The notes beneath the pieces are model-generated. The model was not told the origin of the DNA. It saw only the letters and a list, made by a program, of their open reading frames with translations, and made no database searches. A stretch of DNA of 64,000 bases from Escherichia coli (GTDB lineage: Bacteria; Pseudomonadota; Gammaproteobacteria; Enterobacterales; Enterobacteriaceae), in assembly GCF_024700885.2 (NCBI RefSeq), contig NZ_CP117014.1; one strand, given 5' to 3'. A program made the position numbers and the translations under genes. Each line of letters begins with the position of its first letter. Within the stretch, counting starts at the first letter, position 1. Of the stretch, positions 12,675 to 18,327 are shown piece after piece.

Positions 12675-12782
12675 TCCCAGCAATTGCAAGACTGCATCTC
12701 GAGGATTTAAGGCACCAAGAAGTGGTATTCAGCATCATTAAAACCTATAATTGCGTACACATAACGAGCACACGAGGTGTTT

Positions 12783-13004
12783 ATGCAATCCATTAACTTC
12801 CGTACCGCGCGCGGCAACCTTTCTGAAGTGCTCAACAATGTTGAAGCCGGGGAAGAGGTTGAAATCACCCGCAGAGGCCGTGAGCCAGCAGTAATTGTCA
12901 GCAAGGCTACTTTTGAAGCCTACAAAAAAGCGGCGCTGGATGCCGAATTTGCATCCCTGTTTGACACCCTGGACTCCACCAACAAGGAACTGGTTAACCG
13001 ATAA
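12783..13004 (+). CDS. phd: Phd antitoxin
   Basis: [49 protein letters not shown]... matches P1 Phd (73 aa) as I remember it; start trimmed from ORF 12777. Confidence 0.95.
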
Positions 13005-13384
13005 TGAGGCATATATCACCGGAAGAACTTATTGCGCTTCATGATGCGAATATAAGCCGCTACGGCGGCCTGCCGGGAATGTCAGATCCGGGTAGGGCAG
13101 AGGCCATTATCGGGAGAGTTCAGGCCAGAGTTGCCTACGAAGAGATCACCGACCTTTTCGAAGTCTCCGCCACCTACCTGGTGGCTACGGCGAGAGGGCA
13201 TATATTCAATGATGCCAATAAGCGTACCGCGCTAAACAGTGCGCTGCTATTTCTACGCCGTAACGGTATACAGGTATATGATGATCCCGTGCTGGTGGAG
13301 CTTGCAGTGGGGGCTGCAACTGGTGAAATCCCCGTATCTTCAGTAGCGAAAAAACTACGTGAACTATATGGTTCCAATATTTGA
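13004..13384 (+). CDS. doc: Doc toxin (Fic-fold kinase)
   Basis: 126 aa; [11 protein letters not shown] Fic-like motif; ATGA-coupled to phd as in P1. Confidence 0.95.
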
Positions 13385-13419: not shown

Positions 13420-14514
13420 TCACTCAATGATTTTTTCTGCTGTCAGCCAGCTAATTTCTTGCCTGTCTTTCGGCGGTTTTAGCATGTGGGCGTATTCAGC
13501 GACATTCTCCCACGGAATTGTTTTTGCCCACTCAACGATAGCATTGTGATCTGCAGTGAAGAGTGGAATGGTGTGCGATTTCAACCATTCTAATGTCGTG
13601 ACGCCATGTTTTTTGGCGTGGTGCTGCGCATGATGCCGGGCTATCACTCGTAATGGTATTGTCCATTCACTACCATCAGGCATCGAAAAGCGCATTGTCT
13701 TCGGCATATCTGATTCAAGAACAGCCTCCCTAATACCAGGGAACTCACCAAGAATCATACGACGATAGTCATCACTATTTCGCCCGCCATACCTTTCGGC
13801 AAAATGATCAAGATATTCTTGGGTAATAAATGGTGAATCCTCCGCACTCAGCTTAATGGCTTTATATACACCACTCGGATTATCTTCAGCTAAAGCACGT
13901 CCATGATGTGAATCATAAAAAAAGCCTATTTCCTCTGGTGACGGAATTGAAGTGAGCAATATGCGTGAATCACCACTAGTCATGCTTGCCCACACAATGC
14001 TGTATGCCCGATCGCTGATATGTGCGGAATCCACAATAATGAATAAAAGATGGTCGGCGTAGTGACCTGCAATGCTATCTTCATAGTTAAGGCGGAAGTT
14101 ACAAAAGCACATTCCCCAAAATTCATTGAACATCAGACCGCTATCACCGACCTTAAAATACTCAATGATAAAAGGTTGTTTTTTCAGCAATGCCTCCCAA
14201 CATTGCCACACATATGCAACAATTCCTCTTTTGCAAACATTTGATTTTGGATAAACAATTACTGTCCGGGAATCAGGATACATAATCGTATAAAGGGTAC
14301 TAATAACAGCAAGCACTTGCGGTCGTCCGATCCCATACGGAGTGGTGACAGTAGCTTTTGCATTATTGGGCTGTATAGCTTCAACAATTTGTTGTTGCTG
14401 GTGGCTTAAATCAATATCAAACAATTCTTTTGCTGCCAGTACCCAATTGTCTTTATATTTCTCCACCAGCGACAGCCAGCGCGGATCTTTATAAATATTG
14501 CTCTTAGTCGCCAT
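13420..14514 (-). CDS. PacB-like terminase ATPase-domain paralog with degenerate Walker motifs
   Basis: Start set to MATKSNIYKDPRW (overlaps the upstream stop: ATGGCGACTAA). Aligns by eye to PacB residues ~10-265 (DPRW, SHQQQQI, YFYDSHH, SPF.T, YGGR). Walker A GHGTGKS becomes PYGIGRP and Walker B LDEAS becomes VDSAH. The C-terminal ~100 aa is unrelated to the PacB nuclease half. Confidence 0.6.
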   Translation of the reverse strand: MATKSNIYKDPRWLSLVEKYKDNWVLAAKELFDIDLSHQQQQIVEAIQPNNAKATVTTPYGIGRPQVLAVISTLYTIMYPDSRTVIVYPKSNVCKRGIVAYVWQCWEALLKKQPFIIEYFKVGDSGLMFNEFWGMCFCNFRLNYEDSIAGHYADHLLFIIVDSAHISDRAYSIVWASMTSGDSRILLTSIPSPEEIGFFYDSHHGRALAEDNPSGVYKAIKLSAEDSPFITQEYLDHFAERYGGRNSDDYRRMILGEFPGIREAVLESDMPKTMRFSMPDGSEWTIPLRVIARHHAQHHAKKHGVTTLEWLKSHTIPLFTADHNAIVEWAKTIPWENVAEYAHMLKPPKDRQEISWLTAEKIIE

Positions 14515-15271
14515 CTGCCACTTCCTTAACTTCTTCTTTGGCCTGTTCTGCAATCGCCGCACGGCATTTCGCCCTGGCTGTAGCGATTGCTTCAGCTCGC
14601 ACATCGTCTGGAATCGTTGACGTGATATACATATCCAGTTCTTCGGCACGGAATACTGTTTGGTCCAGATATTCGCGTAGCATCCAGGTAAATTCGAAAT
14701 CACACGCGATAATCTCTGCGCTACCTTCTGCACCATTTGGGAAATGAATAAATGCCTGTTTAGCCAAACCGATAACACGACATGCGGTTGCCAAAACAGC
14801 GACAACTAGGTTTACATTTTCACACGCTACGGGCTGGTTAACGCCGGAGATTACTCCATTTAACTGTCGGTTATATGGAAGGTAGTTTGAGATGCGTTCT
14901 ACGCGCCATGTGCCAGTCAGGCTGCCATTTTTAAATATAATTGGTGTAACGGATAGCCCAAGCTCGCGTATAAGTCGTTGCGCTATAGCAGGATCATTAA
15001 ACAGGTCTAATGCTACACATTCGAAAGACTGCGCAAGGGCAAACAGTTCTTCCAGAGAGTAGTCTTTGCCCCTGGCGGTGATGTAACGACGAACGCCGCT
15101 GTCTGCATCACTCCATATAGCTACGCCATGCTCTTCATTCAGCTCTTCATTAAAGCCGAGATACGTCATGATAGTGCGTTCAATCGTGTCAAACGGCAGT
15201 GACATGTCGGCGTTAACAGCCACCAGCAGGCCATTACGCAAGCGGTATTGAATTGTTTTAGTGCTTTCCAT
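14504..15271 (-). CDS. hypothetical protein coupled to the PacB paralog
   Basis: 255-aa ORF; no motif recognised; its stop overlaps the start of the downstream gene. Confidence 0.5.
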   Translation of the reverse strand: MESTKTIQYRLRNGLLVAVNADMSLPFDTIERTIMTYLGFNEELNEEHGVAIWSDADSGVRRYITARGKDYSLEELFALAQSFECVALDLFNDPAIAQRLIRELGLSVTPIIFKNGSLTGTWRVERISNYLPYNRQLNGVISGVNQPVACENVNLVVAVLATACRVIGLAKQAFIHFPNGAEGSAEIIACDFEFTWMLREYLDQTVFRAEELDMYITSTIPDDVRAEAIATARAKCRAAIAEQAKEEVKEVADGD

Positions 15272-15277
15272 GTCAAA

Positions 15278-15718
15278 TCACTCCACAACAAACCAGTCAC
15301 AGGCCAGCAGGTCGCCAACTGAAGGCACCCACGGAACAACTACACCTTGTGCATTTTTTAAGGCGAAATAAGCACCATACGGAACGAGGTCGCCGGGGAA
15401 ATATCCCTTAATGGCTTCCATTCGTGCCGGGTACTGTCCTTCAGGAACCAGCCAGCAGAATTGGTTTTCGCCGTTCCACCCGCGTCGAGCAACTTTCTTG
15501 CCTTCCTTCAGCCACATCAGCGCGTCTGAAAAGTCGGCTGCTTCAAGGTCGATTTCTTCTTGCTGGGTGGTGATGCCACCAGCAGAAATAGTTACGCTCC
15601 CGGTAAGATTAATCATCACGCCGTTGTCATCCGTAATGATGACCGTGGTTCCATTTTTTTTGTGAGCTTTGTATTTGGGACGGAACTTAAAAAGCTCTTT
15701 CGTTGCCATGTTATTCAT
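15278..15718 (-). CDS. DUF2829 (Tad2-like) domain protein
   Basis: C-terminal 85 aa FSDALMWLKEGKKVARRGWNG...VPWVPSVGDLLACDWFVVE fits the DUF2829 signature (A..LK.GKKV.R.GW ... D.LA.DW.V) from memory; extra ~60-aa N-terminus. Confidence 0.65.
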   Translation of the reverse strand: MNNMATKELFKFRPKYKAHKKNGTTVIITDDNGVMINLTGSVTISAGGITTQQEEIDLEAADFSDALMWLKEGKKVARRGWNGENQFCWLVPEGQYPARMEAIKGYFPGDLVPYGAYFALKNAQGVVVPWVPSVGDLLACDWFVVE

Positions 15719-15732
15719 AGTCTTTTCTCTGC

Positions 15733-16227
15733 TTATAACTTTTCGTACTGAAGCGGTGAACGCTTAATTTCAAAGTGGCCTTCCGATGTGCTACCAAAGC
15801 CACCAGCACCACGCTCCGTTTCGTTGAGTTCCTCAACCTCGACTAGTGAGACTTGTTCAACACGCTCAAAAATTCCTTGCATGACAGCCATTCCAGGCTT
15901 GAGACAAACGCCTTCCCCGCCGGGATCAGTAATCAGTTTTGCCATGATTTCGCCGCGATAATCGGAGTCGATAATTCCTACGCAGTTAGCCAGGCGAGTA
16001 TGTTTTTTGCAGCCCAATCCTGATCGCGGATAGAGTTTCAGACACCAGCCGGGCGGGATCTCCATAGCCAGTCCGGTATACACCCACCAGCTTGAGGAAA
16101 TTGCACCATTGCTATCGACGCATGGTTTTATTTCAACAGCCTCAAAATCCATCGCCGCCGATCCGGAGGTGGCATAAGCTGGAAGTTTTGCTGCCGGATG
16201 TAGGCGTTTCACTTTTACGTAAATCAT
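15733..16227 (-). CDS. dut: dUTPase
   Basis: 164 aa; GIIDSDYRGEI and RGAGGFGSTS trimeric dUTPase motifs. Confidence 0.8.
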   Translation of the reverse strand: MIYVKVKRLHPAAKLPAYATSGSAAMDFEAVEIKPCVDSNGAISSSWWVYTGLAMEIPPGWCLKLYPRSGLGCKKHTRLANCVGIIDSDYRGEIMAKLITDPGGEGVCLKPGMAVMQGIFERVEQVSLVEVEELNETERGAGGFGSTSEGHFEIKRSPLQYEKL

Positions 16228-16706
16228 TGTTTTTTAGCTCTCTGCGTGAAGGTGTAAACCCGACGTTTGATATGTGGAACGGTAGGAACAGGAAGACAGG
16301 AACTTTCAATAACTCCTTGCTCATCCAGCGATCGCACCGCCCGCAAGAACTGCGACGTGTCGCCGCCAAACTGGCGGGCATAGGTGCTGCCGTTATGAAG
16401 TATTTGAGCTATTACCCGAGTTTTTGTCTGGCTGTCACGATATGCGAATAGCCGCACGGCCTCTTCTGGCGCAATCGCTAACTGATAGCCTTTCCCGGCA
16501 CGGTGTCGAATGAATCCATGCGCCAGTAGGTTTTTGAGTTCGTTACGAGTGCGAACAGATCCGTAACCCAGGAAGTGTGGATTGATAACGACTGGCTTAA
16601 ACCATTCCGTAGGTGCTTTAGCTAATAGAGCTAACAGCTTCCCGGATAATTCTGGATAGGAAGACGGGTAACAATTCAGAGATGGGTAATAAGTTTTCAC
16701 CGACAC
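16224..16706 (-). CDS. hypothetical protein with two winged-helix-like segments
   Basis: 160 aa; NELKNLLAHGFIRHRAGKGYQL and FLRAVRSLDEQGVIES. Confidence 0.45.
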   Translation of the reverse strand: MSVKTYYPSLNCYPSSYPELSGKLLALLAKAPTEWFKPVVINPHFLGYGSVRTRNELKNLLAHGFIRHRAGKGYQLAIAPEEAVRLFAYRDSQTKTRVIAQILHNGSTYARQFGGDTSQFLRAVRSLDEQGVIESSCLPVPTVPHIKRRVYTFTQRAKKQ

Positions 16707-17041
16707 CCCCTTGCAGGATATCGACCGGCATTAGTATCCGGTGCAATAAAGCCGGTAGTGGGGCGAGTGAAAGCGAGATTAATCTTCTCGACCATAGTGC
16801 GATAATTTTCCTGATAGTGGGCCAGGAGTTTTTCGGCGGCAATGATGGTTACTTTCCGGACGTAGCTTTCTGCTTCCTCCAGATTTCGCCAGTTTTTTTC
16901 GAGGGTAAACACAGGGACGGCCTCAAGCCCGGTCATGATGCCGAACACAACGACAGCATGACTGTTCTTAACACCAGCGGCGAAGGTTACGGTGTAACCA
17001 TCCACCTTGAAGCGTCTTGATTCCGTGATTTGACTCTGCAA
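16697..17041 (-). CDS. hypothetical protein, first gene of the operon downstream of dre
   Basis: 114-aa ORF overlapping the next gene by 10 nt; operator copy 4 lies upstream. Confidence 0.4.
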   Translation of the reverse strand: MQSQITESRRFKVDGYTVTFAAGVKNSHAVVVFGIMTGLEAVPVFTLEKNWRNLEEAESYVRKVTIIAAEKLLAHYQENYRTMVEKINLAFTRPTTGFIAPDTNAGRYPARGCR

Positions 17042-17099
17042 AGCACCCTCCTAAATAGGCGAGGGTACTTTACAGCAAAGGCGTTAATCTAAAAAGATG

Positions 17100-17113
17100 T
17101 GTTAGAAATTTAA
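17100..17113 (+). promoter_or_regulatory. operator-like 14-mer, copy 4
   Basis: TGTTAGAAATTTAA between the dre stop (17115) and the 114-aa gene start (17041). Confidence 0.5.
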
Positions 17114-17114
17114 T

Positions 17115-18143
17115 TTACGAATCCATCAGGCGGCTATTAGCCCCCACAGACACGCCGCCACGGCGAAGATACCGCATAAGTGTTTCCGGTTTCTTCCAGG
17201 TTCCTTCCTGCATGATCTCCACCATAGACACCTGCTTTTCAGCCATATCAATAGCGGCCCCGACGCGTGCACTATGCCCGGTCCACGTCCGGTATCTTCC
17301 TTTGTTTGGCGTAGCATCTCTTTTATTCAGCAACACCCAGGCGTCGCTGAATATTTTCTCCATTGCAGGTGCAGTAAGGGGCGTTGTCGTGATCCTGGCC
17401 TTATTGCTACGGTGTATCGGCGGGAACAGCACTGCGTCAGGATGTTCGCGAAGCCCGGAAACATCCAGCCAGTCATTCAGCACAGCGGTAGTGCGACGGG
17501 AAAGCACCTTATCAAGCCCGGCGGCGGTCGTTATTGTCTTCGTGTGTGAAATATGTAGCGTGACAGTGTCACCTGTTTGATCCAGATCTCCTACACGAAT
17601 ACGCGAGATTTCCGACATACGCATCAGCGTATTGTATGCAACAAAGAGAAAAGCCCGGTTGCGCAGGTCCACCAGCCGTTCTGACCTGGACAACAGGACG
17701 TCGAGCAGTTTCAGATCGTCCCACCGAAGCGGTATAGCCTGGCCTGTTCGTTCGCCTTTTTCAGTTGCCGCTTCGCGCCGGATGCGCCGCATAGCCAGAG
17801 AAACACTTTTATCATCCGAAAGTGGCGGAAGGCCACAATGCGAAAGCAGCATATTCAGCATGGCGTAGTGCTTATCAATGGTGGTCGAAGCCAGATCGGC
17901 ATCATGCAGCTGAAGAAAATACTCGCGGGCCATTTCTGGTGAGATCGGAAACCAGGCAAGCTGGCGAGCGTGACACCAGCGCGCCCATGAATGAAACACC
18001 AACCGGAGGTCGCGCAGAGTATTCGGCGCATAAGCCCCCTGGTCATTCATGAACCGCATAAAGTTTTCTGCAGCCTCCTGGTACTCTTTGCCAATGTTGC
18101 GCAGAAAACCACCGGAGCTGCCAGAGATAATTAATTCACTCAT
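17115..18143 (-). CDS. dre: Dre tyrosine recombinase (Cre homolog of phage D6)
   Basis: 342 aa; aligns along its length to P1 Cre (WFP..PE....Y, VSL.MRRIR.E, AYNTL.R..EI.RIRV.D, GHSARVGAA.DMA); begins MSELIISGSSGGFLRN as I recall for Dre; cognate rox site 150 bp upstream. Confidence 0.9.
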   Translation of the reverse strand: MSELIISGSSGGFLRNIGKEYQEAAENFMRFMNDQGAYAPNTLRDLRLVFHSWARWCHARQLAWFPISPEMAREYFLQLHDADLASTTIDKHYAMLNMLLSHCGLPPLSDDKSVSLAMRRIRREAATEKGERTGQAIPLRWDDLKLLDVLLSRSERLVDLRNRAFLFVAYNTLMRMSEISRIRVGDLDQTGDTVTLHISHTKTITTAAGLDKVLSRRTTAVLNDWLDVSGLREHPDAVLFPPIHRSNKARITTTPLTAPAMEKIFSDAWVLLNKRDATPNKGRYRTWTGHSARVGAAIDMAEKQVSMVEIMQEGTWKKPETLMRYLRRGGVSVGANSRLMDS

Positions 18144-18295
18144 GAAACTATTTAACCTCTATATACAGATAACGCTACGCGAAAAATATAAAAATGACAG
18201 GGTAGCTATAAGTTAATTTTCAAGATTCAAGCCTTTGATTCGAGGCGCGTATTTTCAGTGATGTCAATACTGATCATCTACCCATAATTATAGCC

Positions 18296-18327
18296 TAACT
18301 TTAAATAATGCCAATTATTTAAAGTTA
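18296..18327. other. rox recombination site
   Basis: TAACTTTAAATAAT-GCCA-ATTATTTAAAGTTA: perfect 14-bp inverted arms around a 4-bp spacer, identical to the published rox site as I remember it. Confidence 0.9.

Follow-up and report, generated by a model that had tools for sequence, protein, structure and literature searches.

We analysed a 64,000-nt stretch of an Escherichia coli contig (NZ_CP117014.1; assembly GCF_024700885.2), hereafter the window, and found that the gene at 15278-15718 on its minus strand encodes a Tad2-family protein that is probably an anti-Thoeris immune-signal sponge, one that would sequester signals derived from ADP-ribose (ADPR). The open reading frame (ORF) of 146 amino acids (aa) was recovered exactly where an initial annotation, made from the letters of the sequence, had placed it and proposed a candidate immune-signal sponge. 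That proposal gained support from the predicted fold, from the ligand pocket and from the experimentally tested homologue Tad2_68, which shares 68% identity with the window protein and is active against Thoeris. The gene corresponds to orf114 of Escherichia phage D6, which is related to P1 and is maintained as a plasmid, and the two proteins are 98.6% identical.

The sole Pfam-A match of the protein was PF11195.14 (Tad2-like, also known as DUF2829), with an E-value of 5.9e-23 and 81.6 bits against a gathering cut-off of 25, a match far beyond chance. It spans residues 62-145 and profile positions 2-73 of 73, which bears out the end-to-end DUF2829 match that had been read from the C-terminal part of the protein; the segment quoted at that time, FSDALMWLKEGKKVARRGWNGENQF...VVPWVPSVGDLLACDWFVVE, corresponds to residues 63-146. 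Weak Pfam matches to EFP OB, PilY2 and DUF5076 all lay far below their cut-offs and were dismissed. A sequence search of the PDB returned, at E <1, only Tad2/AcrIIA7 chains, namely ModTad2 (9eib, 8e-21; 8v3e, 1.1e-20), HgmTad2/AcrIIA7 (8kbi, 3.7e-11; 9kzr, 1.2e-10), SPO1 Gp34.65 (8sme, 1.4e-9) and SptTad2 (8wjd, 7.8e-9). Repeating the PDB search with the last 61 residues only gave no additional information.

The AlphaFold2 (AF2) model, built with 62 homologues, had a predicted local distance difference test (pLDDT) value above 90 at residues 61-146. In this region it showed a helix at residues 63-71, six strands and a second helix at residues 134-138, and the domain is composed of helix α1, a β-sheet and a 25-residue insertion between β2 and the next core strand. 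When the model was compared with the PDB using Foldseek, the best 24 matches were all Tad2 structures, and the next one had E >1. The best match was ModTad2 with His-ADPR (9eib, E 9.4e-11), and target-normalised TM-scores reached up to 0.78-0.90. The predicted, not solved, structure of the domain is that of the Tad2 family, and solved Tad2 sponges alone matched it.

The ligand pocket is conserved as well. In SPO1 Tad2, gcADPR is held by W25, N26, W73 and D79, with S76 coordinating a water molecule (10.1101/2023.05.01.538930), and these five residues align with W81, N82, W130, D136 and S133 of the 146-aa protein, respectively. Together with G83, the same positions align with W21, N22, G23, W87, S90 and D93 of HgmTad2, in which the gcADPR site was verified by mutation of W21/N22 and S90/T92/D93 (10.1101/2023.11.15.567273). 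Both pocket motifs, G-W-N-G after β1 and W-x-x-S-x-x-D before the last helix, are present. Among the 62 homologues, R78, W81, W130, S133, D136, A139, D141 and W142 are invariant and N82 is nearly so. This mapping used the pocket maps of SPO1 Tad2 and HgmTad2. The window protein also has a highly conserved helix α1 (DFSDALMWLKEG), the element through which SPO1 Tad2 tetramerises. The profile match, the predicted structure and the pocket were the computational checks that the initial annotation had suggested, and each came out in its favour; every computationally testable feature of the Tad2 family was found in this protein.

To assess which ligand the pocket might hold, we drew on a preprint in which 18 Tad2 proteins were tried against seven signalling systems (10.1101/2025.08.24.671296), and compared all 18 with residues 56-146 of the window protein. 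Tad2_68 was the closest (68% identity over 82 residues), followed by ModTad2 (46%), whereas HgmTad2 and SPO1 Tad2 each showed 36% and the remaining tested homologues 23-38%. TmoTad2 and CcaTad2, inhibitors of type II Thoeris, were considered as closer relatives and rejected, being at 35-38% identity no closer than SPO1 Tad2. Tad2_68 is listed there as validated for both type I (3'cADPR) and type II (His-ADPR) Thoeris, whereas type IV Thoeris, two CBASS systems and two Pycsar systems gave negative results (Table S2, 10.1101/2025.08.24.671296). This 87-aa metagenomic protein from IMG/VR is identical to the window protein at all ten mapped pocket positions, and its insertion is equal in length and near-identical in sequence. 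It differs in being a standalone domain, whereas the window protein retains a 61-residue N-terminal remnant, and roughly one in three residues differ. The nearest tested relative thus points to His-ADPR and 3'cADPR as candidate ligands.

Tad2 proteins of the cyclic-dinucleotide-binding subgroup (HgmTad2, SptTad2) carry an insertion of about 40 residues between β2 and β5. Because its insertion of 25 residues is too short, the window protein lies outside this subgroup. From the activity profile of Tad2_68 and the missing 42-residue insertion, we conclude that an anti-Thoeris ADPR-signal sponge is the best-supported prediction, and that its ligands are most likely Thoeris signals derived from ADPR, such as His-ADPR and 3'cADPR, in preference to cyclic oligonucleotides.

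Comparison with the solved Tad2 proteins places the window protein more precisely. ModTad2 (also MoTad2; 9eib, 8v3e), from a Myroides odoratus prophage, is the best solved-structure match by both sequence and fold; its insertion has 24 residues, and the W-N-G and W..S..D motifs are common to both proteins, whereas it differs at 4 of the 10 mapped pocket positions and has no N-terminal extension. SPO1 Tad2 (Gp34.65; 8sme, 8smf, 8smg), the founding member, has the same fold, an equally short insertion and the same principal gcADPR contacts. Its secondary contacts I63, T65, D67, H71 and T78, however, are L, N, Q, V and G in the window protein, and it comes from a lytic Bacillus phage rather than an enterobacterial phage-plasmid. 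HgmTad2 (AcrIIA7; 8kbi-8kbm, 8wjc) belongs to the same family and has the ADPR pocket motifs. Its native form of 151 aa has an N-terminal extension, and the protein works with these 47 additional aa, but its 42-residue insertion builds a cyclic-dinucleotide pocket, in contrast to the 25-residue insertion of the window protein.

If the window protein follows the solved Tad2 proteins, its last 85 residues would form a homotetramer in which two V-shaped dimers are interlocked via helix α1, with inter-subunit pockets to which one chain would contribute W81/N82/G83 and a second chain W130/S133/D136. These pockets would bind and hide second messengers that TIR proteins make from ADPR, most likely His-ADPR of type II Thoeris, 3'cADPR of type I Thoeris or both. 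The host effector would then stay off, allowing the phage-plasmid to replicate or establish.

Several observations weigh against this assignment. Thoeris is uncommon in E. coli, which is at odds with the 93% carriage of Tad2 in D6-like elements, and another, commoner signal may therefore be the real target. The Shine-Dalgarno sequence of the gene is weak (GAGA about 10 nt upstream), and its expression may therefore depend on coupling to the dUTPase gene upstream. In other lineages the locus is prone to deletion and frameshift, and the linker retained in the N-terminal remnant, which resembles a trimer-forming spike, might interfere with or alter assembly. The sponge activity of the window protein is one that we infer from homologues, the nearest tested of which is 32% diverged, and Tad2 specificity shifts between close relatives (10.1101/2025.08.24.671296). 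It is because specificity moves in this way that our confidence in an anti-Thoeris sponge stays moderate.

An alternative that keeps a working Tad2-type sponge would give it a non-Thoeris ligand, such as a CBASS cyclic dinucleotide, a Pycsar cyclic CMP (cCMP) or cyclic UMP (cUMP), or another nucleotide signal that is commoner among Enterobacteria, bound in a second pocket of the β2-β3 insertion. The Tad2 family overall inhibits CBASS, Pycsar and three Thoeris types (10.1101/2025.08.24.671296), and ModTad2, the closest solved structure at 46% identity, binds cUMP in a second pocket; in solved Tad2 proteins it is the insertion that builds this second pocket. The insertion is also hyper-variable and recombining. 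Comparing window positions 15380-15460 (residues 87-113) with three further loci (L001, L005 and L006), we found three Tad2-domain types among copies on P1/D6-like phage-plasmids. The first is that of the window, with WNG and PEGQYPARMEAIKGYFPGDLVPYGAY; the second has a long insertion (PDKHGASRLTPIKHAINGELEINFDSPLAPYGTH); and the third is short, carries Lys in place of the pocket Asn (R[G/E]WKG) and has a different W..S..D strand. Stretches of zero divergence adjoin stretches with a synonymous divergence (dS) >1, the insertion being the variable part; such mosaic alleles indicate recombination. The pattern looks like recombination-driven switching of ligand specificity, which would fit a non-Thoeris ligand. 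Nevertheless, the insertion of the window protein has 25 residues as in SPO1 Tad2, a non-binder of cyclic dinucleotides, and not 42 as in HgmTad2, and Tad2_68, with its same-length, near-identical insertion, was negative on both CBASS and both Pycsar systems. We therefore consider a non-Thoeris ligand unlikely for this allele and favour ADPR-derived signals.

We next consider the N-terminal region, which had been described as an extra domain of about 60 aa. Sixty-one residues do precede the Tad2 domain, but they are not a domain; they are a deletion scar consisting of a stub and a linker. These roughly 60 residues had AF2 pLDDT values of 41-65 and no Pfam match. Close homologues are mostly 216-233 aa long and align with query residues 21-146 only. 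The full-length homologue P0012 reads MNNMATKELFKFLPKYKAHK-NVSASK...(79 aa)...NDVS-KNGTTVIITDDNGVMINL, whereas the window protein reads MNNMATKELFKFRPKYKAHK-KNGTTVIITDDNGVMINL. A MAFFT alignment of window positions 15200-15800 (minus strand) with positions 5901-6800 of L001, the 91-kb contig that carries the P0012 locus in the same gene order as the window, revealed a clean in-frame gap of 237 nt (79 codons) in the window relative to the full-length allele. The full-length allele has an A5 run at each breakpoint (CACAAAAAC ... TCCAAAAAT), and the window is left with an A8 run; phage D6 shares the deletion. Because of their low pLDDT, the lack of a Pfam match and their origin as the leftover of an internal deletion, the 61 residues are a remnant and not an independent folded domain. 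The A8 homopolymer spans codons 20-22; such runs are slippage-prone and could switch the gene off by frameshift.

The full-length alleles (SJ46 J46_0048, P0001 and P0012; 216-233 aa) occupy the same locus, with a linker and Tad2 domain up to 98-99% identical to those of the window protein, and share its neighbours, dut upstream in D6-like elements and an isaA-like gene downstream. They differ in an extra 79-residue barrel, absent from the window and D6 alleles, that is related to Dec of phage L. A profile of eleven N-terminal parts matched Dec (6e3c) over residues 5-127 with E 5.3e-8, whereas a single sequence reached only 0.015. Dec comprises a capsid-binding oligonucleotide/oligosaccharide-binding (OB) fold at residues 10-77 and a trimeric β-helix spike at residues 93-134 (PMC6449081). 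Linker residues 21-55 of the window protein, modelled as four short strands with pLDDT 55-65, align with the C-terminal spike segment of Dec, and residues 1-20 with its N-terminal tail. The barrel of the full-length relatives (79 residues, pLDDT 84-93) is deleted in the window allele, which accordingly lacks the N-terminal, capsid-contacting OB-fold of Dec; Dec, for its part, has no Tad2 domain. The 146-aa form is a deletion derivative of a two-module protein whose lost module was Dec-related, the 237-nt in-frame deletion having removed the Dec-like barrel and left a 20-aa stub, which corresponds to the start of the barrel domain in the longer relatives, and a stalk-like linker. Both are probably dispensable for sponge function.

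At least four unrelated N-terminal modules occur among the homologues, all of them attached at the conserved junction (E)IDLEAADFSDALMWLKEGK, indicating that the N-terminal part is an exchangeable accessory. Standalone Tad2 domains of 85-90 aa occur in the same clade (e.g. P0080, 86 aa). The Dec-like barrel itself proved to be widespread: an exhaustive search with P0137 yielded 2,129 cluster representatives at 50% clustering, for which there is no Pfam model, and revealed the family, whereas a word-indexed search, for which the query was the first 99 residues of a full-length relative, had returned only 11 fragments. Many of these barrels are standalone proteins (85-105 aa), and others are fused to Tad2-like or Phage_gp49_66 domains, which suggests a pool of small phage modules that shuffle. 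By the look of the sequence, the N-terminal module of some Tad2 relatives (P0116, P0120) resembles Phage_gp49_66, and in a further recurrent fusion P0036, P0038, P0043 and others carry a crAss001_48-related domain (PF21825) C-terminal to the Tad2 domain.

A more speculative reading, to which we give little weight, would make the N-terminal modules (Dec-like barrel plus stalk, Phage_gp49_66-like, helical) functional partners of the Tad2 domain and the D6-type 146-aa allele a separation-of-function deletion, with the three Tad2 alleles recognising different signals, possibly including one undescribed in Enterobacteria. Under such a partnership, a module may act as a second ligand-binding or oligomerising unit, or may place the sponge on or in the particle.

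We also weighed whether the gene is decaying, its product having been disabled by the in-frame deletion and its reading frame surviving only because that event was neutral and happened recently. In favour of decay, model confidence is low across the N-terminal remnant, a whole-gene query of complete E. coli genomes gave 218 matching records of which only about 6 had the deletion allele, and damaged versions are found in other elements: frameshifted stubs at the locus (P0136, P0138 and P0140), a 135-aa derivative that lost the Tad2 domain and kept the Dec-like part (P0137), and a half-domain deletion (P0078). These domain-damaging deletion derivatives, P0078 and P0137, occur on only 1-3 contigs each. 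In contrast, the exact 146-aa sequence was found on 527 public contigs from E. coli and Salmonella, and the independently isolated phage D6 has the same deletion allele. Its ORF is intact, the whole Tad2 domain is untouched, and natural standalone Tad2 proteins of 85-90 aa are functional. Moreover, of the nucleotide differences that separate the Tad2 domain from that of D6, 8 are synonymous and 1 is non-synonymous, and the corresponding counts for SJ46 are 9 and 1; the resulting ratio of non-synonymous to synonymous divergence (dN/dS) of about 0.03 points to purifying selection. Taken together, the evidence favours a functional gene and renders decay improbable. The allele counts come from the whole-gene search and an exact-sequence look-up; a 50-nt query spanning the deletion junction returned no match in complete E. 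coli genomes, where the A8 run was probably masked as low complexity. One further variant at this locus, P0028, is an in-frame dUTPase-Tad2 fusion of 241 aa, with the junction ...ERGAGG-ITTQQ...

A structural or accessory particle protein, acting via the Dec-like remnant and stalk or otherwise virion-associated instead of serving as a cytoplasmic sponge, is highly improbable. The capsid-binding part of Dec is its OB-fold (PMC6449081), exactly the part that is deleted here, and since the Dec-like barrel is a promiscuous module (2,129 representatives), homology to Dec does not imply capsid binding. The gene also lies among early/accessory genes and not among morphogenesis genes. To our knowledge, E. 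coli and Salmonella have no type II CRISPR-Cas, which counts against an AcrIIA7-type anti-CRISPR that inhibits Cas9. Although AcrIIA7 (HgmTad2) is in the same Pfam family and among the PDB matches (8kbi and 9kzr), identity to it is only 36%, and such a role is very unlikely, the last of the readings we would entertain, because the anti-Cas9 activity of HgmTad2 and other Tad2 proteins was not reproducible in vitro or in vivo (10.1101/2023.11.15.567273).

The anti-Thoeris candidate resides on a mobile element. Window positions 14531-18200 are 97.6% identical to phage D6, and the first 25 kb of the window match a 95-kb E. coli plasmid at 98.7% identity, followed by roughly two thousand weaker matches to plasmids. 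The neighbouring genes include cre-like, phd/doc, humD, terminase and c1-type genes. By these matches, the window can be assigned to a D6-like, P1-related phage-plasmid of E. coli and Salmonella; the identity to D6, the phage-plasmid match and the neighbours also show that the gene is encoded by a phage or prophage. Of 5,426 complete E. coli genomes, 212 carried the gene, and 212 of the 219 matching places were on plasmids. A phage-plasmid survey based on AntiDefenseFinder-type screening found that 93% of D6-like elements and 56% of P1-like ones carry 'Tad2 AcrIIA7 (anti-Thoeris)' (preprint 10.1101/2025.09.12.675607). In the P1-like SJ46, the Tad2 gene lies between ssb and isaA, beside the dar/ddr anti-restriction genes. 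We considered whether P1 hides a Tad2 gene at its IS1/isaA locus; this was ruled out, as isaA directly follows ssb there and tblastn over the first 30 kb of P1 gave no Tad2 match.

The identification of the gene as such is already known, both from the survey above and from RefSeq, where D6 orf114 is labelled 'DUF2829 domain-containing protein' with the note 'similar to C-terminal half of J46_0048 protein of phage SJ46'. A 100% identical gene on E. coli plasmid NZ_CP074704.1 is likewise annotated DUF2829, and the Prokaryotic Genome Annotation Pipeline (PGAP) names one allele 'Thoeris anti-defense Tad2 family protein'. In PHROGs, the 146-aa protein was placed in phrog_872 and phrog_1048, both of unknown function, and scans of the protein and four neighbours with NCBIfam and PADLOC gave no match, no model in these libraries reaching the protein. 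Within the literature that we searched, what is new is the architecture produced by the deletion, the relationship of the lost module to Dec, the connection with an experimentally tested homologue and the mosaic of alleles. These points refine the picture and do not define a new kind of system; the protein is an ordinary family member in an expected place.

If the anti-Thoeris assignment is true, D6-like and many P1-like phage-plasmids carry a countermeasure to TIR-based (Thoeris) signalling immunity. Pathogenic E. coli, Shigella and Salmonella commonly harbour D6/P1-like elements, which in some cases bring resistance genes with them, and a Thoeris countermeasure would help to account for the wide spread of these elements among hosts. 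The practical value is limited, in that the family has been well characterised in structure and mechanism and its presence in these elements has been reported. The mosaic alleles, which vary in the very region that is known to determine which ligand is bound, nevertheless offer a compact natural panel for work on specificity.

The positions of the gene, its parts and its neighbours are listed in Table 1. On the minus strand, the order is the cre-like recombinase gene, two small ORFs of unknown function, the dUTPase gene, the Tad2-like gene, the isaA-like gene and a 364-aa ORF. The dUTPase stop codon is separated from the Tad2-like start by 14 nt, and these two genes follow each other likewise in D6, L001 and pEP91B-2. 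The isaA-like gene starts 6 nt after the Tad2-like stop, and its product is 48% identical to P1 IsaA. It always lies directly 3' of the Tad2 gene, in both D6-like and P1-like (SJ46) elements, while the upstream neighbours vary; the two genes may form a cassette. From the strong sigma-70-like promoter 5' of the recombinase gene down to position 14300 on the minus strand, the sole terminator-like site was a weak 5-pair stem (18012-18000) inside the recombinase gene. This promoter may drive the whole minus-strand string down to the Tad2-like and isaA-like genes, making their co-transcription with the recombinase and dUTPase genes plausible.

Table 1 Coordinates of the Tad2-like gene, its parts and neighbouring features in the window.
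Feature	Position	Strand	Evidence
Tad2-like coding sequence, 146 aa plus stop codon	15278..15718	-	ORF list; ATG 15718, stop 15278-15280
N-terminal stub, residues 1-20 (MNNMATKELFKFRPKYKAHK)	15659..15718	-	comparison with P0012 and P0001; DNA alignment with L001
Deletion junction, A8 run on coding strand	15654..15661	-	MAFFT; plus strand reads T8
Linker, residues 21-55 (KNGTTVIITDDNGVMINLTGSVTISAGGITTQQEE)	15554..15658	-	AF2; Dec profile match
Junction motif IDLEAA, residues 56-61, directly before helix α1	15536..15553	-	homologue alignment
Tad2-like (DUF2829) domain, residues 62-146	15281..15535	-	Pfam; AF2; Foldseek
dUTPase gene, upstream neighbour	15733..16227	-	Pfam PF00692 E 1.7e-14; PHROG 135
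isaA-like gene, 255 aa, function unknown, downstream neighbour	14504..15271	-	phrog_2326 E 9.7e-134; no Pfam match
cre-like tyrosine recombinase gene (D6 'dre')	17115-18143	-	
Sigma-70-like promoter: TTGGCA, 16-nt spacer, TATAAT; 11/12 matches	18287..18314	-	consensus scan; 5' of recombinase gene

Two further features lie downstream of the Tad2-like gene. The 364-aa ORF (13420-14514, minus strand) overlaps the end of the isaA-like gene by 11 nt and has no Pfam match, although its sequence reads like a P-loop ATPase; a mechanical call of 461 aa for this ORF begins too far upstream. It is missing in phage D6, which has pdcA there, and present in NZ_CP074704.1 and pEP91B-2. Positions 12777-13384 on the plus strand encode a plasmid addiction module composed of a PhdYeFM antitoxin (75 aa) and a Fic/Doc toxin (126 aa), as is likewise found in P1 and D6.

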